In this document: in pieces, positions 1 through 61,035 of the stretch
Layout of the letters: each line of letters starts with the position of its first letter
Position numbering within the stretch: the stretch's first letter is position 1
NCBI GenBank assembly: GCA_902509965.1
Contig: CABWZP010000002.1
Coordinates: 23,652-87,651, forward strand
Reading direction: 5' to 3'
From: an uncultured SAR86 cluster bacterium
Lineage (GTDB): Bacteria; Pseudomonadota; Gammaproteobacteria; Magnimaribacterales; D2472
Length of the DNA: 64,000 nucleotides
The notes under the pieces: generated by a model
Told to the model about the DNA's origin: nothing
The model's input: the letters and a program-made list of their open reading frames with translations, nothing else
Database searches by the model: none
Made by a program: the position numbers and the translations under genes

Positions 1-427
1 AATTAAAGAAAAGTACTATCTTAATGATATGCAAAATTGGGCAAGTTGCAGAGAAATTGATATAAATTGGCCTAGCATTTTTCCCATTAATTCTGTGAAA
101 GCGATGCGTGGTTGCCTTTATGCAGAATTAAATAACAATTTACATGAATATGCGCTAAGTATTTTTAAAGCATACTGGACAGATGATCAAGATATAAGCT
201 CTGATAAGATTTTAGAAGATATATGCCTTAAAAATGGAATTGATTCAAAGAAGTTTTTTGAATTTATTGATATGCCATCTACAAAACAAAAACTTATAGA
301 TAATTCTAAAGATTTAATTGAAAAGGGTGGTTTTGGATCACCAACTTTTTTCTATAAAGATAAAATGTTTTTTGGTAATGATAGGCTAGATTTACTATCC
401 AGCCTATTACAAAAAGAATTAATTTAG
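1..427 (+). CDS. DsbA-fold 2-hydroxychromene-2-carboxylate isomerase / GST-kappa-like protein, 5' end outside window
   Basis: Frame is open from base 2 with no stop before the tracked ATG at 29, so the gene probably starts upstream of the window. The C-terminal 'GGFGSPTFFYKDKMFFGNDRLDLL' resembles the conserved tail of HCCA-isomerase/DsbA-like proteins. Confidence 0.6.
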   Translation, partial: IKEKYYLNDMQNWASCREIDINWPSIFPINSVKAMRGCLYAELNNNLHEYALSIFKAYWTDDQDISSDKILEDICLKNGIDSKKFFEFIDMPSTKQKLIDNSKDLIEKGGFGSPTFFYKDKMFFGNDRLDLLSSLLQKELI

Positions 428-1512
428 AATCCTTGAACCTTTGCAGCCTCTTTCCTTACTAATTCTGGTGAGCCGAGCAATTGTCGATTCATACCAATTC
501 TTTTAAACCAATAATGCAGTCCAAGAAGGTCTGTGAATCCCATTCCGCCATGAACCTCAGTCGATTTTTTTGCTACCATTTTGCTTACCTCAGATACATG
601 AGATTTTGATTGACAGGCCATCAATCTAGCTTCTTCTGGAACATTATCAAAACAATGGGATGCATGCCAAACAATTGCATAGCAAGGCTCTAACTCCGCT
701 GCCATTTCAGCACACATATGTTTTACAGCCTGGAAAGAGCCAATTACTCTACCAAATTGCTTTCTTTCTTTTGCATATTCAACTGCTCTGTCAATCATAA
801 CTTGAGAGGCTCCAATGCTATCTGCAGCCAACATAATCCTTCCAGCATCAATAGTTTTAGTAATAGCTTCTGCGCTTTGAGAAGAGTGTTCTAGAACATC
901 AATATCTGCATTATTAAGTACAATCTCAAAATAATCTCTAGTCTTATCAACAGAAGTTAATTTAACTACTTCAACTTCATTATCTTCAGCACAAACAATA
1001 CCCATAGTTCCATTTTTATTAGCTAAAATAAAATGAGATGCGCGATCTCCATCAATAACAAATAAAGCTCTTCCGCTTGCTTTGTTGTTATCAATTTCTA
1101 TACCTGCATCATCTCGAGCACCTATATATTCTGTTAAGCCCACACCAAAATTTATTTCATTTGATGCAATCTTACTTAGATAATTATCTTTTTGAGAGTT
1201 ATTCCCTCCATGCATAATTGCAAGAGGAGCCATTACATAAGATCCAATAAAAGGAATAGGTGCAACGCCTGATCCAAGACCCTCAGACACAGCTGCAGCA
1301 AAAAGTAAGTCTAATTCTAAACCTCCATATTCTTCAGGAATCAATAAAGCATTTAGACCTAGATTAATAAGACCTTGATGGATTTCTTTTTGAAGATCTT
1401 CGCCTTCACCACCTGTAATCTTTCTTATTACATCCAATGAGGATTGATCTTCAAGAAATTTTTTTACATTATCTTGAAAAAATACTTGTTCTTCAGATAG
1501 TCCAAAATACAT
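424..1512 (-). CDS. acyl-CoA dehydrogenase family protein, small and apparently non-catalytic partner of a tandem pair
   Basis: Tracked ORF 424-1599 trimmed to the ATG at 1512 (MYFGLSEEQVFF...), 1 nt after the stop of the upstream ACAD. The ACAD-like C-terminal half is present ('FGRVIGSFQAVKH', 'VHGGMGFT'), but the family signature is degenerate and both usual catalytic-Glu positions read Gly. Confidence 0.8.
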   Translation of the reverse strand: MYFGLSEEQVFFQDNVKKFLEDQSSLDVIRKITGGEGEDLQKEIHQGLINLGLNALLIPEEYGGLELDLLFAAAVSEGLGSGVAPIPFIGSYVMAPLAIMHGGNNSQKDNYLSKIASNEINFGVGLTEYIGARDDAGIEIDNNKASGRALFVIDGDRASHFILANKNGTMGIVCAEDNEVEVVKLTSVDKTRDYFEIVLNNADIDVLEHSSQSAEAITKTIDAGRIMLAADSIGASQVMIDRAVEYAKERKQFGRVIGSFQAVKHMCAEMAAELEPCYAIVWHASHCFDNVPEEARLMACQSKSHVSEVSKMVAKKSTEVHGGMGFTDLLGLHYWFKRIGMNRQLLGSPELVRKEAAKVQGF

Positions 1513-5932: not shown

Positions 5933-7861
5933 TTAATGAGAATTAAGAACCATCAATAATGCTCCATTTTCAACTTGGTCATTATCGCTTATAAAAAGCT
6001 CACTAATAACTCCATCCTCAGAAGCTTTAATGGAGTGCTCCATCTTCATTGCTTCTAAAATAACTAAAGTATCTCCAGCTTTAACTTTAGAACCTTTTTT
6101 AACTTTTAAATCAATGACAGTACCTGGCATAGGGGCTACTAGACCACCAGCTTGCACCTCCAACCCGGGAACAATAAATCTAGGAAGAATCTCAAGCAGA
6201 ACATCACCAAAAGGCATATGAACAAGCACTTGATTTTTATTAATAGTTACTTTTGAGAAATGTCTTTTACCATCGAACTCAAGATCAATTCCATTTTCGT
6301 AACATTCATAAATAAATGCTACTGATGAATTATGAATTTTAAATGATCCATCTCTTCTAGCTCTATAAGTAACATTAATTTCATCGTCTTTATATTTAAA
6401 TTTAATATTTTGTTTTGGCGTTCTTCCATTTGTCCAACCTGAAGGCAAATGACCTAAAACATCATCATGCAACCTATTTAATTCCTGAATCCATAATGCA
6501 GCTATAGCAGTTACATGATCAAGTTGCTCTTCACTGAGGATCAATACTCTAGGCGGCTTTACTCTTTCAATGAAATCAGTAGTAGTATCTCCATCTAAAA
6601 ATTCCTGTGTTTTTAAAGTTGCAACTAGAAAGTCTCTATTTGTAGTTAATCCACCAATATGAGCTGCCTCTAATGCTCTAGCTAATTTGATTGCTGCATC
6701 AGTTCTTGTTGCACCATAAGAGATAACTTTTGCTAACATTGGATCAAAAGATGTACCAACTATCGATCCAGACTCTACACCAGAATCCCATCGAGCTTCA
6801 GCTTCATAATCCTCTTCAAATGCAATTAGTGTTCCTGTTTCAGGAAGAAAGTCATTATCAGGATCTTCAGCATATAATCTAGCCTCAATAGAGTGACCAC
6901 TCCAACTAATATCATATTGTTCATAGCCCAACTCTTCACCTCTTGCTATTCTTAGTTGCTCATATACAAGATCCATATCTGTAACTTCTTCAGTAACAGG
7001 ATGTTCTACTTGCAGTCTAGTGTTTACTTCAAGAAACCAAAATTCACCTGTTTTATCATCGAAAAGAAACTCCACAGTTCCTGCAGATTGATATTTAATT
7101 TTTTTTGCAAGTTGAACAGCTGCTGAACCCATAGCCTCTCTTATTTCTGGAGATATTCTTGGAGATGGAGATTCCTCGATAATTTTTTGATGTCTTCTTT
7201 GAATAGAACATTCTCTTTCACCAAGATGAACTACATTTCCATGAGAATCGCCTAGAATTTGTATCTCAATATGTCGAGATTTTTCTACATATCTTTCTAT
7301 AAATACTCTTTCATCTCCAAACCCAGACTTTGCCTCTCTTTGAGCACTTACAATAGCTTCTTTAAGATCTTTTTGAGATTGAACTATCCTCATGCCTTTT
7401 CCACCACCACCAGCAGCAGCTTTAATTAGAAGAGGATACCCAATATTTTTAGCTTCATTAGGTTTTGAGGTCATTGGAAGAGTAGGGACATTAGCTTTAA
7501 CAGCCAACTCTTTTGCTTTTAATTTATCTCCCATAACTGAAATCACATGCGCAGATGGACCAACCCAAATAATTTTTTCTTTGAGAACTTTTCTAGCAAA
7601 AGATGCATTTTCTGATAAAAAACCATAACCAGGATGTATAGCCTGAGCCCCAGTTTTTTTTGCAGCATCTAGAATAAGATTTCCATCAAGATAGCCTCCA
7701 TCAGGAAGACGAAAAGCTTCATCAGCTGCTCTTACAAAAGGCGCATCTGCATCTGCATCAACATACACAGCAATACATCTAATACCCATTTCATGAGCAG
7801 TTTCTATTATTCTTACAGCTATCTCACCTCTATTAGCGATTAGTAATGAATTAAAAATCAT
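5933..7861 (-). CDS. acyl-CoA carboxylase alpha subunit (biotin carboxylase + BCCP; AtuF/LiuD-like)
   Basis: 642 aa. ATP-grasp biotin carboxylase ('LLIANRGEIAVRII', 'GGGGKGMR'). C-terminal biotinyl motif 'LEAMKMEH'. Confidence 0.93.
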   Translation of the reverse strand: MIFNSLLIANRGEIAVRIIETAHEMGIRCIAVYVDADADAPFVRAADEAFRLPDGGYLDGNLILDAAKKTGAQAIHPGYGFLSENASFARKVLKEKIIWVGPSAHVISVMGDKLKAKELAVKANVPTLPMTSKPNEAKNIGYPLLIKAAAGGGGKGMRIVQSQKDLKEAIVSAQREAKSGFGDERVFIERYVEKSRHIEIQILGDSHGNVVHLGERECSIQRRHQKIIEESPSPRISPEIREAMGSAAVQLAKKIKYQSAGTVEFLFDDKTGEFWFLEVNTRLQVEHPVTEEVTDMDLVYEQLRIARGEELGYEQYDISWSGHSIEARLYAEDPDNDFLPETGTLIAFEEDYEAEARWDSGVESGSIVGTSFDPMLAKVISYGATRTDAAIKLARALEAAHIGGLTTNRDFLVATLKTQEFLDGDTTTDFIERVKPPRVLILSEEQLDHVTAIAALWIQELNRLHDDVLGHLPSGWTNGRTPKQNIKFKYKDDEINVTYRARRDGSFKIHNSSVAFIYECYENGIDLEFDGKRHFSKVTINKNQVLVHMPFGDVLLEILPRFIVPGLEVQAGGLVAPMPGTVIDLKVKKGSKVKAGDTLVILEAMKMEHSIKASEDGVISELFISDNDQVENGALLMVLNSH

Positions 7862-56938: not shown

Positions 56939-57355
56939 ATGAATATACTTTTTATGTGCGTTGGTAATTCAGCAAGAAGCCAAATAGCAGAGGGCTTAGC
57001 TAAAGCTATGCTCAGTAAAGAGCATCAAATACAAAGTGCAGGATCTATACCTTCAGGTAAGGTTCATTCAGGTGCTATTTCCTGCATGAAATCCATAGGG
57101 ATAGATATTTCAAATCATTATTCAAAATCAATTGATGATCTTGAATCTAATTTTATAGATAATCTAGATTACGTTATTACTTTGTGTGGAGAGGAGGTTT
57201 GCCCAGTGCTTCCAACTTCAGCCACTTCTTTGCATTGGGTGCATCCAGATCCAGTAAATATTAATTTTGATAAAGCTCAAGAAGCCGAAGCTTTTGAGCA
57301 TACTAGAGAAAGTATTTTTAAATTATTAAAAAAATTTTTGATTCTTAATACTTAA
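56939..57355 (+). CDS. arsC: arsenate reductase / low-molecular-weight phosphotyrosine phosphatase family (thioredoxin-coupled ArsC type)
   Basis: 138 aa. P-loop 'MCVGNSARSQIAEG' and second Cys pair 'TLCGEEVCP' parallel B. subtilis/S. aureus ArsC. No arsB/acr3/arsR nearby. Confidence 0.65.
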   Translation: MNILFMCVGNSARSQIAEGLAKAMLSKEHQIQSAGSIPSGKVHSGAISCMKSIGIDISNHYSKSIDDLESNFIDNLDYVITLCGEEVCPVLPTSATSLHWVHPDPVNINFDKAQEAEAFEHTRESIFKLLKKFLILNT

Positions 57356-59076
57356 AAATTAAACCAGCCAATTGCATCGTACTCGATGCCTGTAGTTACA
57401 AAGCCTTGAACAGCAAGCAAGCATCCAGTAATAATCAACCCTAATATAGAACCAATAACACCATTATTTGCAGCTATGCCAACAATAGTAGTAGGTTTGT
57501 ATATAAGTTCCTTGTAATTAATAGATTCATCAACTTGTTGAAGTAACGCCTTTGCACTTTCGAGGTCGGTAATTCTATCTGGTGATGCATTGGCTAACTT
57601 TAATTCCCAAATCTCTTCTTCAATAATAAAAAGCTCATTTCGAACAAAGTCTCTATGCTCGGCACTTAAAGATTGCAGTCTAATAGCCATATACATAGCA
57701 AGAAGACTTATCCCTGAAATAATTGCAATGATGGCTACTATGACAAAAATAGTCGAAATATGATGGCGCATTTCTGTCCATATAATAAGATTTAACAAAC
57801 CAACACAAAATAAAGAGTAAAAAATAAGGATCGACGTATAACCTTCAATTCTAAGATAAAAAGCTTCTCCAAAAGATCGCAAAACTTTTCTCATATTCAT
57901 CCAAGCAAAGACATTGACTCTTTTTTGCAGATCTAAATAAATTGGTTCTTTACTATCATTATTAGCTTCATCGCTTGAAAATAATTCAGAAAATCTAAGT
58001 CCTGGATACTTAACTAAATCACCTATTTTTTTAGCAGTCTCATAACGCCTCTCAAAATCTATTGAACATACAAGCCCAAAGAAGAGGAGCTGAAATCCCA
58101 AGAAAAATCCTAAAATAGAAGCCACTGAAATCATTTGCTCTAATCCAGACACCCCAAAGAGACTTGCTCCATAGACATATCTAACCATAAATGGCGTAGC
58201 GGGAATTAATAGCATGGATGGATACAAAATAAGTCTATATTTTTTAACAAAGTCTTTTTTATAGACAGACATAATAATGTTAAACAAGAATGAACCTGAA
58301 GCAACTTCATTTTCTTTTGTTGCACTGGTCTTATTAGGGAATAGGGGACTTGATTCTTCATTAAGCAAATCTTTAATATTTGTGTCACTTAAATCCATAG
58401 GTATACCTTGAAGACAGATGTCATTTTCATCCATAGCACAGGTAAGCTCATCTTCAATTAAGCCAGGATTGTCAGTAGGCTTACTCCAGCCTGGACCTAT
58501 TAATCTTCTTTGAGTTTTTTGATCATCCCAATCTGGTGCTGGTAAGCACATTCTCTCTAAATCTTCTTCTCTAAAGTAAGCGTACTTAACAGAAATGATG
58601 AGCCTGCGAACAAATAGCAATAAGTAGGCCAAGATAATTTGAAAAGTATCAATGTTTTGAGTTAAAGCACTATCGCTAAATAAAGCTAAAAGAAGTGCTG
58701 CAGTTAGAAGCCATGAGGCCGGATAGGTAATTAACCAAGAGCCAATAATAAAGGCTAATGAGTGATGTTTAGTTGAGGTTGCGCATAAACCTCTATTTTG
58801 AATTACATGCCAAGCTCTATTAGGGCTTGATTCTAAAACTAATGCGGCAAGAGGGGACACAAAGACAGGGGGTAGATTTTCATATATAAAAGTTTTCCAA
58901 AACGCATTCCAAGAAAACTTAACAGGGTTGTGAAAAGTATCACCTTTATTTTTTGAGGCACTTCTTAATTTAGCCGCTTGATACGAAGAATTGATGCCTG
59001 AGATAAAATTTTCATCGTGTTCTACTGATGGCTGTCGAAGACTCAAGTAGGATTCTGGAATATCTTTTGAACTCAT
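57352..59076 (-). CDS. orphan polytopic membrane protein, unknown function
   Basis: 574 aa. About 8-9 hydrophobic segments, a ~95-aa hydrophilic Cys-containing insert, and a predicted coiled coil before the last TM. I do not recognise a family. Confidence 0.6.
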   Translation of the reverse strand: MSSKDIPESYLSLRQPSVEHDENFISGINSSYQAAKLRSASKNKGDTFHNPVKFSWNAFWKTFIYENLPPVFVSPLAALVLESSPNRAWHVIQNRGLCATSTKHHSLAFIIGSWLITYPASWLLTAALLLALFSDSALTQNIDTFQIILAYLLLFVRRLIISVKYAYFREEDLERMCLPAPDWDDQKTQRRLIGPGWSKPTDNPGLIEDELTCAMDENDICLQGIPMDLSDTNIKDLLNEESSPLFPNKTSATKENEVASGSFLFNIIMSVYKKDFVKKYRLILYPSMLLIPATPFMVRYVYGASLFGVSGLEQMISVASILGFFLGFQLLFFGLVCSIDFERRYETAKKIGDLVKYPGLRFSELFSSDEANNDSKEPIYLDLQKRVNVFAWMNMRKVLRSFGEAFYLRIEGYTSILIFYSLFCVGLLNLIIWTEMRHHISTIFVIVAIIAIISGISLLAMYMAIRLQSLSAEHRDFVRNELFIIEEEIWELKLANASPDRITDLESAKALLQQVDESINYKELIYKPTTIVGIAANNGVIGSILGLIITGCLLAVQGFVTTGIEYDAIGWFNF

Positions 59077-59110
59077 TTTTAATCCATTAATTATTAGTTG
59101 ATACGAATGA

Positions 59111-59407
59111 TTAATTCCACTCTAAAACAATGTTTCCTGATCTTGGGTCTGTTACACCTAGCTCTGGAGATATCTCTTCCAGTAAATCTCTCATTTTATC
59201 AAGGTTGCCTATCATTGCAGGTCTTGCACTAACCATTGCATCTTCTGATTCCCATGCTCCAACAGCTACATACTCTCTTTCACCTGTATGAACAAGCGTG
59301 GAATAAGTTTCACCTTCTTGCATAACAAAAGTATTAAAAACTTCTAAGAATTTTTCTTCATTTCCTTCTTTTACAATAAATCTCACGATATTCGAATAAG
59401 CGCTCAT
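59111..59407 (-). CDS. ABM (antibiotic-biosynthesis-monooxygenase-like) ferredoxin-fold protein
   Basis: 98 aa. 'VRFIVKEGNEEKFLEVF...' and 'VGAWESEDAMVSA' fit the ABM/dimeric alpha-beta-barrel pattern. 34 bp upstream of the 574-aa gene on the same strand. Confidence 0.6.
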   Translation of the reverse strand: MSAYSNIVRFIVKEGNEEKFLEVFNTFVMQEGETYSTLVHTGEREYVAVGAWESEDAMVSARPAMIGNLDKMRDLLEEISPELGVTDPRSGNIVLEWN

Positions 59408-59530
59408 ATGTTTTTCCTTATAAAATATTTACTTTGTAATAATGCCATAGAGGTTTGTATTAATAAAATACATTCATTTATTTTGTAGGACAAAAAATTG
59501 AAGTTACTAGAAATATTTAGATTCTAAAAA

Positions 59531-60151
59531 CTATGTCTTTAAAGCCGAACCCCAATAATTGTAACCAGCAAAACTTGGAGTGCTTGGTAGGTACATCTGC
59601 TCCATATTTTCTATTTCAAAACCTGCTGAGGTAATAAGTTGCGGGATATTTCTATTTAGATGACAGCCACCTGCAATTTTTCCCCATATTGGATCAATTC
59701 TACTTTGCCATTTAGCAACTTTTGGATCAGGAGCAAGTCCATGCTCACAAAAGATCAATCTTCCATCTGGTTTTAGCACTCGAAGCATTTCTTTATTTGC
59801 TTCAATAACTTCTGGAATAGTGCACATAGTATAAGTAATTAAAACTGTATCCACGTGATTATCAGGCAAAGGAATATCTTCAGCACCACAAAGCATAAAG
59901 TCGACATCAATTTTATTTTCCTCTGCAACACCTATTGCAAGGTTATTAAGTTCTTCTGATGGATCAAGGCCGATGACCTTATCGATTTTTGTCATATCGT
60001 AAAATGGAATATTTAGCCCTGAGCCAATTCCTACATCCAATACAAGTCCTTTAGCTAAAGGTACAACTTTCTTTCTTTGATAATTAATGGGCTTAGAGCC
60101 GCAAGTGCAGTTTAAAACTTTTGGCAATACATATTTATTATAAAGACCCAT
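59531..60151 (-). CDS. class I SAM-dependent methyltransferase (type 11)
   Basis: 206 aa. Motif I 'VLDVGIGSGLN', 'LKPDGRLIF'. Confidence 0.8.
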   Translation of the reverse strand: MGLYNKYVLPKVLNCTCGSKPINYQRKKVVPLAKGLVLDVGIGSGLNIPFYDMTKIDKVIGLDPSEELNNLAIGVAEENKIDVDFMLCGAEDIPLPDNHVDTVLITYTMCTIPEVIEANKEMLRVLKPDGRLIFCEHGLAPDPKVAKWQSRIDPIWGKIAGGCHLNRNIPQLITSAGFEIENMEQMYLPSTPSFAGYNYWGSALKT

Positions 60152-60153
60152 AA

Positions 60154-61035
60154 CTAATCCTCAATTTCTCTTAAAGTCTCCTCAATACCTGTTGAACCCA
60201 TAGACATTCCACTAATTCGCATATCACCCAACTCTTCTTGAGCAGCCTCACGCATACCTTTAATTAAACCGGTTCTATCTACCGTTAAACCTCCATCTAC
60301 ACATAGGTTGTGTCCAGTGACAAATCTAGATTCATCTGAAGCTAAAAACAAAGCTGCATAAGCTATATCTAATGGTTGACCAAGTTCCTCAATTGGCTGA
60401 AGTCCTTTAATACGCTCATCCCAATCATCAGAAAGACCATTAAGAAGAGGGGTACTAATAGCGCCTGGAGAAATACTATTTACCCGTATTTTAAATTCAC
60501 CTAGCTCTAATGCAGTAGTTTGAGATAAATTTATAACTGCAGCTTTTGCAGCTGAGTAGGCTTGTGGACCGCCTCCTCCTGACATACCAGCAATTGATGC
60601 TGTATTAATAATGGAGGCACCATTAGCATTCTTTTTCATTTCGACCGAGGCATGCTTAATACCCATGAAAACTGATTTTAGAAGTATTGCCATAGATTGA
60701 TCCCATTCATCTGCATCAATATCACTTATAGATCCAAATGCTCCACCAAGTCCAGCATTGTTAAATAAAATATCTAATTGGCCAAATTCATCCATAGCAC
60801 TTTTAACCATGGACTCTATAGCAGCTTCTCTAGATACATCAGCAATTACACTGATAGCATTATCTTTAAAGCCTTTCTGCGAAACTAAATTCATAGTTTC
60901 TTCTAATGTAGTTTGATTGATATCAGCAAGGACAACCTGAGCACCTTCTTCTAAAAATAACAAAGAGGTTTCTCGACCAATGCCACTCCCAGCACCAGTA
61001 ATTATTGCAACTTTACTATTTAATCTTTCGCCCAT
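60154..61035 (-). CDS. short-chain dehydrogenase/reductase (classical SDR)
   Basis: 293 aa. 'AIITGAGSGIGRE', 'NNAG', 'YSAAKAAV', 'PGAIST'. Confidence 0.88.
   Translation of the reverse strand: MGERLNSKVAIITGAGSGIGRETSLLFLEEGAQVVLADINQTTLEETMNLVSQKGFKDNAISVIADVSREAAIESMVKSAMDEFGQLDILFNNAGLGGAFGSISDIDADEWDQSMAILLKSVFMGIKHASVEMKKNANGASIINTASIAGMSGGGGPQAYSAAKAAVINLSQTTALELGEFKIRVNSISPGAISTPLLNGLSDDWDERIKGLQPIEELGQPLDIAYAALFLASDESRFVTGHNLCVDGGLTVDRTGLIKGMREAAQEELGDMRISGMSMGSTGIEETLREIED

Follow-up and report, generated by a model that had tools for sequence, protein, structure and literature searches.

A PHTF-like 7TMIC-fold membrane protein, probably a ligand-gated cation channel, encoded in SAR86 and other marine bacteria

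The 574-aa membrane protein described here is encoded in a stretch of DNA syntenic with SAR86 genomes (the window, which denotes the whole 64 kb analysed) and is best read as a bacterial PHTF-like ('Class-B') 7TMIC member that, by analogy with solved channels of this fold, probably forms a tetrameric ligand-gated cation channel. The best-studied 7TMICs are the insect odorant and gustatory receptors (Or and Gr); SAR86 are among the most abundant ocean bacteria, and PHTF proteins have been conserved in organisms as distant as oomycetes and humans. PHTF1, PHTF2 and Phtf, whose name ('putative homeodomain transcription factor') is a misnomer, are Class-B eukaryotic 7TMICs (PMC9998090; bioRxiv 10.1101/2023.08.30.555482), and no function has been established for them in any organism (PMC9998090). 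An earlier, sequence-only reading had been unable to assign the 574-aa protein to any known family, understandably so because searches against Pfam, NCBIfam and PDB sequences gave no match, but the protein does belong to a described superfamily, in its PHTF-like branch. Its billing as a candidate for an undescribed function has accordingly given way to a confident profile or structure match, which that reading had itself named as the evidence that would count against it.

The ORFs of the window around the gene are listed with its parts in the table. The convergent LMW-phosphatase/ArsC-type ORF overlaps the 574-aa ORF by 4 bp (bases 57352-57355, TTAA), and the methyltransferase ORF ends at 59531. 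The ORFs, the TTAA overlap at the 3' end, the 34-bp gap to a 98-aa, weakly ABM-like ORF and the 123-bp region upstream of the pair were all reproduced from sequence as first described.

Table. The 574-aa gene, the parts of its product and neighbouring elements, in positions of the window.
Feature	Position	Strand	Basis
CDS (incl. stop codon), 574-aa PHTF-like (Class-B) 7TMIC-fold membrane protein	57352..59076	-	ORF list of window, family, dN/dS, AF2, Foldseek, hhalign
Residues 1-55, hydrophilic cytoplasmic N-terminus, poorly ordered	58912..59076	-	pLDDT 40-48; 7 K+R
Residues 56-94, three short helices, invariant YENLPPV..SP, candidate TM0 re-entrant element	58795..58911	-	DSSP, conservation
Residues 107-133, TM1	58678..58758	-	AF2 helix 107-133, hydropathy
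Residues 144-166, TM2, ends in K164-Y165	58579..58647	-	AF2; alignment A2
Residues 167-276, long intracellular loop 1 (IL1), Class-B/PHTF hallmark	58249..58578	-	AF2, conservation
Residues 277-301, TM3, start of PHTF-alignable core	58174..58248	-	AF2
Residues 311-353, TM4 and cytoplasmic helical extension	58018..58146	-	AF2 helices 311-326 and 328-353
Residues 386-433, cytoplasmic extension and TM5	57778..57921	-	AF2 helices 386-401 and 404-433
Residues 440-494, TM6 and long cytoplasmic extension (anchor-domain helix)	57595..57759	-	Single 55-residue helix, AF2
Residues 499-520, TM7a, cytoplasmic half of split TM7	57517..57582	-	AF2; the earlier 'heptad-like' helix
Residues 538-562, TM7b, glycine-rich last TM, predicted pore-lining helix	57391..57465	-	AF2; pore role from Or/Gr structures
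Residues 563-574, short extracellular C-terminal tail, conserved YD..GWF	57355..57390	-	Conservation; 0 K+R
LMW-phosphatase/ArsC-type ORF	56939..57355	+	
34-bp gap	59077..59110		
98-aa ORF	59111..59407	-	
123-bp upstream region	59408..59530		
Lineage-specific 482-bp segment: 98-aa ORF, 123-bp upstream region and 34-bp spacer	59062..59543	-	Alignments to relatives

The AF2 model of the protein (pLDDT 78, pTM 0.76), whose helices from 107-133 to 538-562 are those of the table, has the seven TM helices with Or-like packing that characterise the 7TMIC (Or/Gr) fold. Eight hydrophobic or helical membrane segments were counted, in line with the 8-9 first claimed, and are read as TM0 plus seven TMs; the TM0 stretch (56-94) is hydrophobic, has a mean column identity of 0.81 and consists of three DSSP helices (56-67, 71-81 and 85-94). 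Loop charges indicate an N-in/C-out topology, with one K+R in 37 outside-loop residues versus 39 in 313 inside-loop residues, consistently in 33 homologues, and the outer loops are shorter than the inner ones (EL1, EL2 and EL3 of 10, 9 and 6 aa; IL1, IL2 and IL3 of 110, ~75 and ~73 aa). TM4 (43 aa), TM5 (48 aa) and TM6 (55 aa) are modelled as long continuous helices that reach into the cytoplasm, and TM7 is split by a non-helical linker (521-537), as it also is in a model of the isolated C-terminal part. Other elements picked out in the sequence-only reading find their place in this architecture: the hydrophilic N-terminus, at ~55 aa (claimed ~60) and modelled at low confidence; the 'heptad-like' helical stretch, at residues 470-520; and the glycine-rich final TM. 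The hydrophilic insert with three Cys likewise is real and corresponds to the 110-aa IL1, but its cysteines (C177, C213 and C221) are not conserved in the family.

In the broad alignment A2, which takes in bacteria as well as protists, K164 and Y165 do not vary, nor does W197 in IL1, where P200 is at least 90% conserved. IL1 is acidic and partly folded and carries the motif PAP.W..KT.R...G.GW..P...PGLIEDE.T.AMDEND..L., and TM3 is the least conserved TM (column identity 0.49). In the TM4 extension D340..R343 is invariant and R344 at least 90% conserved ('FERRYE'), H438-H439 is invariant in the extracellular loop (434-439) that precedes TM6, and TM7b, which has no K/R, is preceded by P528....G533..A536.

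Modelling followed by a Foldseek search of the PDB, a check that had been called for, gave insect Or/Gr channels as the only specific matches. Among 350,542 PDB chains, ranks 1-16 were all insect Or/Gr/Orco channels (8z9a, 8uvu, 8jm9, 8v3c, 6c70, 8ze0, 8v00 and others), with probability 0.94-1.00 and TM-score up to 0.52, and probability was at most 0.23 from rank 17 onward; the E-values were modest (best 4.5e-3, typically about 1e-2). These Class-A 7TMICs (Orco 6C70, MhOr5, BmGr9 8UVU/8VC1, DmGr43a 8JM9, AgamOR28, AaegOR10 and Gr64a) resemble the 574-aa protein in overall fold, in N-in/C-out topology, in having loops that are short outside and long inside, in the anchor helices on the cytoplasmic side and in a TM7 that is split and supplies a pore-type helix at the C-terminus, but have no significant sequence similarity to it, and it carries an additional 110-aa IL1 and a 55-aa N-terminal extension. 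Thus, the Class-A Pfam profiles 7tm_6, 7tm_7 and DUF3537 gave no match to the protein at E <= 1, and hhalign of the family against 14 D. melanogaster Grs was not significant (E = 0.095, reversed control 0.09), the best local alignment, also not significant, placing TM7b on TM7b. Ligand gating and cation conduction have been demonstrated for the insect channels but are ascribed to the 574-aa protein by analogy.

Homology was detected with PHTF. The sequence-only reading had ventured, as a hunch, that 'FERRYE...LDLQKRVNVFAWMNMRKVLRSFG' and the helices that follow recall the PHTF membrane core, and profile comparison substantiates it: hhalign of a 25-sequence family alignment against seven authentic PHTFs (sequences from PMC9998090 source data) gave a probability of 98.0 and E = 3e-13 over 283 colinear columns, from TM3 to TM7b (residues 254-560 of the window protein against PHTF1 480-781), with clean controls (reversed, E = 0.15; column shuffles, E at least 0.35; block shuffles, E at least 0.003). 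A SAR86-only profile also matched PHTF (E = 5.8e-6), and the family matched a single PHTF1 sequence (E = 1.9e-5). In the alignment, the 'FERRYE' stretch lies on PHTF 'AERTYKQRF', TM7a on 'LVNNVLKLSTKLLKEL' and TM7b on 'PFRLYGLTMNP...', and the motifs common to both (D..RR, N...W...R......G and P....G..(A/M)N) occupy equivalent helix positions, after TM4 (as D/E..R), before TM5 and before TM7b (as P....G..[AM]N), the second of them reading N388..W392...R396......G403.....R409 in the TM5 region. Also alike are the long hydrophilic N-terminus, the long TM4-TM6 helices, the split TM7 and the long IL1 between TM2 and TM3 (helices 144-166 and 277-301).

There are also differences from PHTF. IL1 is conserved and partly folded here, whereas in human and other vertebrate PHTFs it has ~300 aa and is mostly disordered (PMC9998090); the extracellular HH438-439 and the C-terminal YD..GWF tail are features of the family's own; and the family is encoded in bacteria, PHTFs in eukaryotes. 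Moreover, the N-terminal third has no detectable homology to the PHTF N-terminal domain by hhalign (E = 0.05-0.23), and Pfam PHTF1-2_N (PF12129) matched neither the window protein nor any of 10 distant homologues, while in the positive control it scored 219 bits with turtle PHTF1 and 55 bits with Saprolegnia PHTF, though Guillardia was missed. With neither PHTF1-2_N nor N-terminal homology detected, the protein is filed as PHTF-like and not as a PHTF orthologue.

It is improbable, and already disfavoured by these data, that the likeness to PHTF and Or/Gr arose by convergence, in an unrelated seven-helix protein that packs similarly. In its favour can be cited the insignificant pairwise BLASTP to PHTF1 (best E = 0.028, over 50 residues), the modest Foldseek E-values, the lack of homology in the N-terminal third, the unspecific helical-bundle matches returned by a model of the C-terminal half alone, and the debate in the literature on homology versus convergence of 7TMICs (PMC9998090). 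Against it stand the 283 colinear columns, with an E-value far from those of the reversed and shuffled controls, the shared motifs, and protist intermediates that bridge the groups, these being found from the window protein by phmmer at E = 1e-9 to 1e-79 and matching PHTF, as protist profile A3, at E = 1.8e-13.

The typical prokaryotic 7TMICs (Bac7TMIC/Arch7TMIC) share the superfamily fold and a prokaryotic host, but their TM4 and TM5 are shorter and a long IL1 is lacking (bioRxiv 10.1101/2023.08.30.555482), a published description that sets the 574-aa protein apart; with its eukaryote-type long TM4, TM5 and TM6 and long IL1, it therefore matches the rare 'HGT-type' bacterial Class-B examples (Fig. 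2F, bioRxiv 10.1101/2023.08.30.555482), a few bacterial and archaeal sequences having been placed in the PHTF-like cluster in that study. Kinetoplastid 7TMICs (Trypanosoma/Leishmania GRL1) are similar to the family (profile A2 against four sequences, E = 5e-6; protist-only profile, E = 2.9e-9), but more weakly than PHTF, and have N-terminal repeat domains that are absent in the 574-aa protein.

If solved Or/Gr channels and the tetramer models published for other 7TMICs are a guide, four subunits would assemble with the glycine-rich TM7b lining the pore at their centre, and an anchor domain made up of the TM4-6 extensions and TM7a would keep them in place. The cation path would open on a stimulus, either a small molecule or ions, that might be detected in the outer halves of TM2-4/6, which vary, or in the acidic IL1 domain, which is conserved. 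For a planktonic cell that is not motile, the result may be an altered membrane potential or ion content. The parts that form pore and anchor in Or/Gr are among the best conserved in the family (column identity 0.78 for TM7b, 0.81 for TM5 and 0.74 for TM6ext/TM7a), a superfamily-wide pattern (bioRxiv 10.1101/2023.08.30.555482), and AlphaFold-Multimer gave Or-like tetramers for 83 of 85 diverse 7TMICs (bioRxiv 10.1101/2023.08.30.555482). Both points argue against a protein with the PHTF-like 7TMIC fold that is no ion channel, as does the failure to find a conserved partner gene in any lineage. Such a protein, which we consider a good deal less probable than a channel though worth retaining, could be a receptor or scaffold whose acidic IL1 binds a cytoplasmic partner (cf. 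the PHTF1 N-terminus recruiting FEM1B), or else the fold could have been put to use in transport or in the handling of lipids. A non-channel protein would better account for an IL1 that is partly folded and well conserved (column identity 0.68, PGLIEDE.T.AMDEND), a domain without counterpart in Or/Gr, and for the lack of a significant sequence link to the Gr pore motif. We retain the cation channel as the preferred reading, for whose ligand the genomic context, with no conserved neighbour gene found across lineages, gives no pointer.

Although first described as an orphan, the protein belongs to a family with hundreds of representatives, spread over four or more lineages of marine bacteria, besides protist relatives. 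Full-length homologues (>200) occur in SAR86, Porticoccaceae/SAR92, Marinimicrobia and SAR324, and the gene was found in 65 GTDB species representatives and in single-cell genomes, on contigs as long as 1.19 Mb. It has no introns, and dN/dS between bacterial lineages is 0.03-0.055, by which measure it is evolving under strong purifying selection. The closest non-bacterial relatives are marine protists, and the few bacterial and archaeal Class-B-like sequences previously reported were metagenomic, lacked closed-genome support and were possibly misassigned (bioRxiv 10.1101/2023.08.30.555482), which would suit eukaryotic DNA misassembled or misbinned into a bacterial genome. The likelihood of this is negligible: the gene is embedded among typical bacterial genes, whose ORFs overlap it or nearly abut it, GC is uniform over the 64-kb window, and synteny is identical in independent SAR86 assemblies and single-cell genomes. 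For the family as a whole, contamination is ruled out by synteny, by the spread over species, by the GC of the loci (gene and flanks), which varies with the host lineage between 0.30 and 0.64, and by dN/dS. Judged by these genomic comparisons, the gene is truly bacterial and widespread. In the tree, the bacteria form one clade nested among eukaryotic relatives, which include P0242, from EukProt, and P0229, whose contig also carries a mitochondrial carrier and a V-ATPase. Most likely, bacteria acquired the gene once, from a marine protist, after which SAR86 inherited it vertically and it spread to other marine lineages, Marinimicrobia among them.

The published caveat on bacterial Class-B sequences, metagenomic and of uncertain origin, is thereby answered by conserved bacterial synteny, megabase single-cell-genome contigs and 65 species representatives; gene sharing is documented between protists, SAR86 and Marinimicrobia, and the label of PHTF-like 7TMIC-fold protein can now be given to hundreds of 'hypothetical proteins'. 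More speculatively, and with the odds rather against so specific a proposal, a dissolved compound, perhaps derived from phytoplankton, might be what SAR86, SAR92/Porticoccaceae, Marinimicrobia and SAR324 sense through a tetrameric ligand-gated cation channel that is of odorant-receptor type and belongs to the PHTF lineage. In that case the protein would be the first PHTF homologue from a prokaryote to lend itself to experiments and a route to the function of human PHTF1/2, and a 'eukaryotic' Class-B lineage would have been long maintained by selection in bacteria, possibly predating or seeding some eukaryotic copies, as opposed to a recent one-way import. Independently of that proposal, streamlined, non-chemotactic plankton gain a candidate sensory or ion-flux protein. 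Predicted structures alone have led to the idea that PHTFs, as kin of insect odorant receptors, are ion channels, and a compact, intron-free bacterial homologue with dN/dS of about 0.04 and an IL1 of 110 aa, compared with ~300 aa of disorder in vertebrate PHTFs, would be a practical study target.

The 98-aa ORF had been proposed to form with the 574-aa gene a two-gene module with its own promoter region, given that both lie on one strand, 34 bp apart, behind a 123-bp upstream region; furthermore, the arrangement recurs in the same population on contigs of 1.1-1.29 Mb. The ABM assignment itself falls below threshold (Pfam PF03992, residues 5-58, E = 0.0025, 18.4 bits against a 23.1-bit cut-off), the ORF had no match among PDB sequences, and a scan of the 123-bp region turned up no minus-strand promoter of sigma-70 type. 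Whether the ABM gene is always adjacent was checked, and it is not: no ABM homologue was found near the gene in 70 other loci (L001-L070), even at E <= 10, and it is missing from syntenic relatives with 89-97% identity in the 7TM protein, where 1-32 bp separate the 7TM start from the methyltransferase stop. ORF, upstream region and spacer all came with a 482-bp segment, absent in L007, L008 and L071-L073, that has a lower GC than the 574-aa gene (0.305 versus 0.351) and replaced 38 bp of relatives, overwriting the ends of both neighbouring genes. A conserved module is thus very improbable and effectively refuted by its absence in relatives; as far as these alignments tell, the segment is not part of the 7TMIC unit, and the ABM gene is a strain-specific insertion and not a partner. 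The 38 bp replaced included the methyltransferase stop and the 7TM start codon, and the N-terminus of the window protein differs from those of its relatives, its first ~5 codons in this strain coming from the insertion.

The sequence-only reading had given the ORFs and their spacings exactly as we read them, and its description of the 574-aa protein was confirmed by hydropathy and a structure model: a hydrophilic N-terminus (~55 aa), eight hydrophobic/helical segments, a hydrophilic insert of 110 aa (167-276), a long helix (470-520) and a glycine-rich last transmembrane (TM) segment. It could assign the protein to no family, and Pfam, NCBIfam and PDB sequence searches were likewise empty. As modelled with AlphaFold2 from 33 family members (pLDDT 78, pTM 0.76), the elements of the protein correspond to the diagnostic features of the seven-transmembrane ion channel (7TMIC) superfamily, together with the long intracellular loop IL1 that marks its PHTF-like Class-B. 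The content of K+R, 1 in 37 'outside' loop residues vs 39 in 313 'inside', supports an N-in/C-out topology.

Features of the 7TM locus, with window coordinates and residues of the 574-aa protein
Feature	Window	Residues	Strand	Basis or remark
574-aa 7TM ORF	57352..59076		minus	ORF reading
98-aa weakly ABM-like ORF	59111..59407		minus	34 bp upstream of 7TM ORF
Upstream region, 123 bp				between 98-aa ORF and methyltransferase ORF (ends at 59531)
LMW-phosphatase/ArsC-type ORF			convergent	4-base overlap (TTAA) with 7TM 3' end
482-bp insertion	59062-59543			carries 98-aa ORF; replaces 38 bp of relative (alignment)
Candidate TM0, three short helices		56-94		AlphaFold2 model
TM1		107-133		AlphaFold2 model
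TM2		144-166		AlphaFold2 model
IL1, partly folded loop		167-276		AlphaFold2 model
TM3		277-301		AlphaFold2 model
TM4 + extension		311-353		AlphaFold2 model
Extension + TM5		386-433		AlphaFold2 model
TM6 + extension		440-494		AlphaFold2 model
TM7a		499-520		AlphaFold2 model
Non-helical linker		521-537		AlphaFold2 model
TM7b		538-562		AlphaFold2 model
TM5-TM6 loop with invariant H438-H439 pair	57760-57777	434-439		extracellular loop
YD..GWF tail, conserved, C-terminal	57355-57390	563-574

In a Foldseek search of the whole PDB, ranks 1-16 were all insect Or/Gr/Orco channels (probability 0.94-1.00; best target-normalised TM-score 0.52), with modest E-values (4.5e-3 to 0.15), and from rank 17 the probability was at most 0.23. 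A mild caveat on the fold assignment is that the C-terminal half modelled alone (TM3-TM7b) matched unspecific long-helix bundles (ClyA, designed bundles), with BmGr9 at rank 5 only (E = 0.35).

Predicted structures have led to the proposal that PHTF proteins are remote homologues of the insect odorant/gustatory receptor channels (PMC9998090), and the hunch that the 574-aa protein resembles them was borne out by local profile comparisons with authentic vertebrate, flatworm, priapulid, oomycete, cryptophyte and kinetoplastid PHTF sequences taken from the source data in eLife. A profile of 25 SAR86 and protist sequences (A2) matched a seven-sequence PHTF alignment with 98.0% probability and E = 3e-13 over 283 colinear columns, from TM3 to TM7b (window residues 254-560 vs PHTF1 480-781), compared to E = 0.15 for the reversed PHTF alignment, E ≥ 0.35 for ten column shuffles and E ≥ 0.003 for ten shuffles of 22-column blocks. 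The SAR86-only profile (A1) gave E = 5.8e-6 against the same alignment, and A2 against one PHTF1 sequence 1.9e-5. Of the segments behind the hunch, 'DFERRYETAKKIG' pairs with PHTF 'AERTYKQRFLFAKLF', 'LDLQKRVNVFAWMNMRKVLRSFG' with a 23-letter PHTF segment, and 'KPTTIVGIAANN' with 'TPFRLYGLTMNP'. Comparison with the PHTF N-domain gave nothing significant, the N-terminal third of A1 and A2 scoring E = 0.05-0.23, and Pfam PHTF1-2_N matches true PHTFs but not the family of the 574-aa protein. A profile link to Class-A was dropped as well, since A2 scored against 14 Drosophila Grs (E = 0.095) no better than against their reversed control (0.09); the PHTF alignment itself also fails this test (E = 0.23). 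In the best local A2-Gr alignment, which is not significant, TM7b lies over its Gr counterpart, and T550 and Q557 coincide with the T and Q in the pore motif 'TY.....QF' of the Grs, where the SAR86 family has tG...a.qGF. Because its N-terminal third shows no significant similarity, PHTF1-2_N is absent and Gr profile similarity is not significant, we class the protein as a PHTF-like (Class-B) 7TMIC, and as neither a PHTF orthologue nor a Class-A receptor.

The protein is no orphan, contrary to the sequence-only reading, as homologues occur in several marine bacterial lineages. A search of 5.8 billion proteins returned 230 matches in SAR86 genomes and marine metagenomes, of which nearly all span the full length with 49-97% identity, and an exhaustive search of representatives gave 264 clusters, some of them of longer proteins, with 560-790 aa and an identity of 22-33%. 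A further large search with A2 saturated with close SAR86 relatives and added nothing, and one with a protist-only profile (A3) returned the query alone, but showed that this query stems from EukProt. Scanning one genome per GTDB species, we found 65 loci with the 7TM gene: in SAR86, with many single-cell genomes and contigs up to 1.19 Mb; in Porticoccaceae, SAR92 and Cellvibrionales; in 12 Marinimicrobia genomes (65-67% identity, contigs up to 729 kb); in SAR324 (43-50%); and in one high-GC lineage. Locus GC, taken over the gene and as much as 6 kb of flank at either end, spans 0.30-0.64 among the host lineages. Comparison with close relatives gives a dN/dS of 0.03-0.055 (for instance, dN = 0.021 and dS = 0.53 for the window vs the 96%-identical locus L071); the gene is functional and long resident in bacteria. 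The PHTF-like cluster was described as including 'a small number' of sequences from bacterial and archaeal metagenomic data, presumed horizontal transfers, with a warning of possible misassignment (bioRxiv 10.1101/2023.08.30.555482), a caveat on bacterial provenance that the present finding answers. Our literature search found no paper connecting SAR86 with PHTF.

Eukaryotes account for some, at least, of the relatives at 22-33% identity: P0242 stems from EukProt, and P0229 adjoins mitochondrial-carrier, V-ATPase and RING/WD40 genes. A rough neighbour-joining distance tree groups the bacterial sequences as a single clade within these eukaryote-type sequences. This agrees with a single transfer from a protist to a bacterium and later spread among marine bacteria, the direction being tentative in a tree of this kind. 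Marinimicrobia (SAR406; L017-L031, L067) nest inside SAR86 diversity with a conserved neighbourhood of their own in the 12 genomes, and their copies look like an inter-phylum transfer among surface-ocean bacteria. Bearing on direction is the tree's sister of the bacterial clade, a 790-aa protein (P0130) with lysine-rich low-complexity inserts, encoded on a gene-dense 9.9-kb contig (L075; NCBI GCA_977009655.1) beside Pyridox_oxase_2 and Zn-phospholipase C/FG-GAP genes. Viral carriage was discarded, IMG/VR viral contigs containing no relatives of the 7TM protein. In BFVD, the sole specific viral fold match was Mimivirus LCMiAC02 A0A4D5XEV6 (449 aa; probability 1.00, E = 0.03, 374 aligned columns), possibly a viral protein of 7TMIC fold and a conceivable transfer vector.

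The 98-aa neighbour scored 18.4 bits against Pfam ABM, below the threshold of 23.1. It had been paired with the 7TM gene behind an upstream region of their own, an arrangement we recognise as an insertion scar rather than operon design, because the ABM gene is absent from fully syntenic relatives with 89-97% identical 7TM proteins, 482 bp replace 38 bp, and no neighbour is conserved; an ABM partnership is thus rejected. In those relatives 1-32 bp separate the stop of the methyltransferase gene from the 7TM start, and none of the 70 other loci compared has an ABM homologue near the 7TM gene. The inserted segment (GC 0.305 vs 0.351 for the 7TM gene), with no obvious terminal repeats at its borders, overwrote the final methyltransferase codons (...GSALKT* vs ...GSARMK* in a relative) and the initial 7TM codons (MSSKDIPESY vs MTNEINSKIPESY). 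The exact ABM protein adjoins the 574-aa gene on 1.1-1.29-Mb contigs of the window's population, where the insertion is fixed. A promoter and terminator scan was uninformative, with fewer sites than expected from shuffled sequence. No neighbouring gene family is conserved between lineages, and neighbourhood was discarded as a functional clue, synteny being lineage-specific: the window's subclade has the order SDR-methyltransferase-7TM, and most other SAR86 have SDR/MBL-7TM-folE-maf-cysS, with an unrelated upstream SDR (~25% identical). In the window (59531-61035) and in L071-L073, SDR, class-I methyltransferase and 7TM genes run head-to-tail with gaps of 1-5 bp where the insertion is lacking, which suggests co-transcription.

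Conservation is maximal in TM0, TM2, TM5, the extracellular loop EL3, TM7b and the C-tail and minimal in TM3, TM4 and EL1, echoing the conserved pore and anchor and variable outer pocket of the superfamily. By analogy, subunits would assemble as a tetramer via cytoplasmic anchor helices, with TM7b lining a cation pore gated by some ligand. Family-specific features that may be relevant are the acidic IL1 motif PGLIEDE.T.AMDEND, H438-H439 and the YD..GWF tail; the last two, absent from PHTF, may build an outer vestibule or a site that senses metals or protons. We rejected the idea that the three cysteines of the insert make a disulfide or a metal site, because 8-19 of 33 homologues have other residues in their place. 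The fold and homology are very probably as assigned; that the protein is a channel falls slightly short of an even chance, and the combination of PHTF-like 7TMIC fold/homology with channel function is somewhat favoured. With good support, the protein joins a recently described superfamily as a new bacterial member and is no new kind of system; this exceeds in interest the reading as an anonymous membrane protein, yet stays within a known superfamily.

Two loci depart locally from this organisation. On a 206-kb contig of the window's population (L076, 6530-7656), the LMW phosphatase is 5 aa shorter and the sulfotransferase downstream of it is split into two ORFs (214 and 121 aa), possibly through pseudogenisation or a sequencing error. 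In the SAR86 MAG FRAM_RAS_F4 (L006, a 97% relative; ~5990-6010), the methyltransferase (...YWGSA) continues straight into 7TM residue ~75 (...PLAALVLESSP), reflecting either an assembly artefact or a deletion that took the N-terminus of the 7TM protein and the start of TM0, and could be a pseudogene or a fusion within one lineage.
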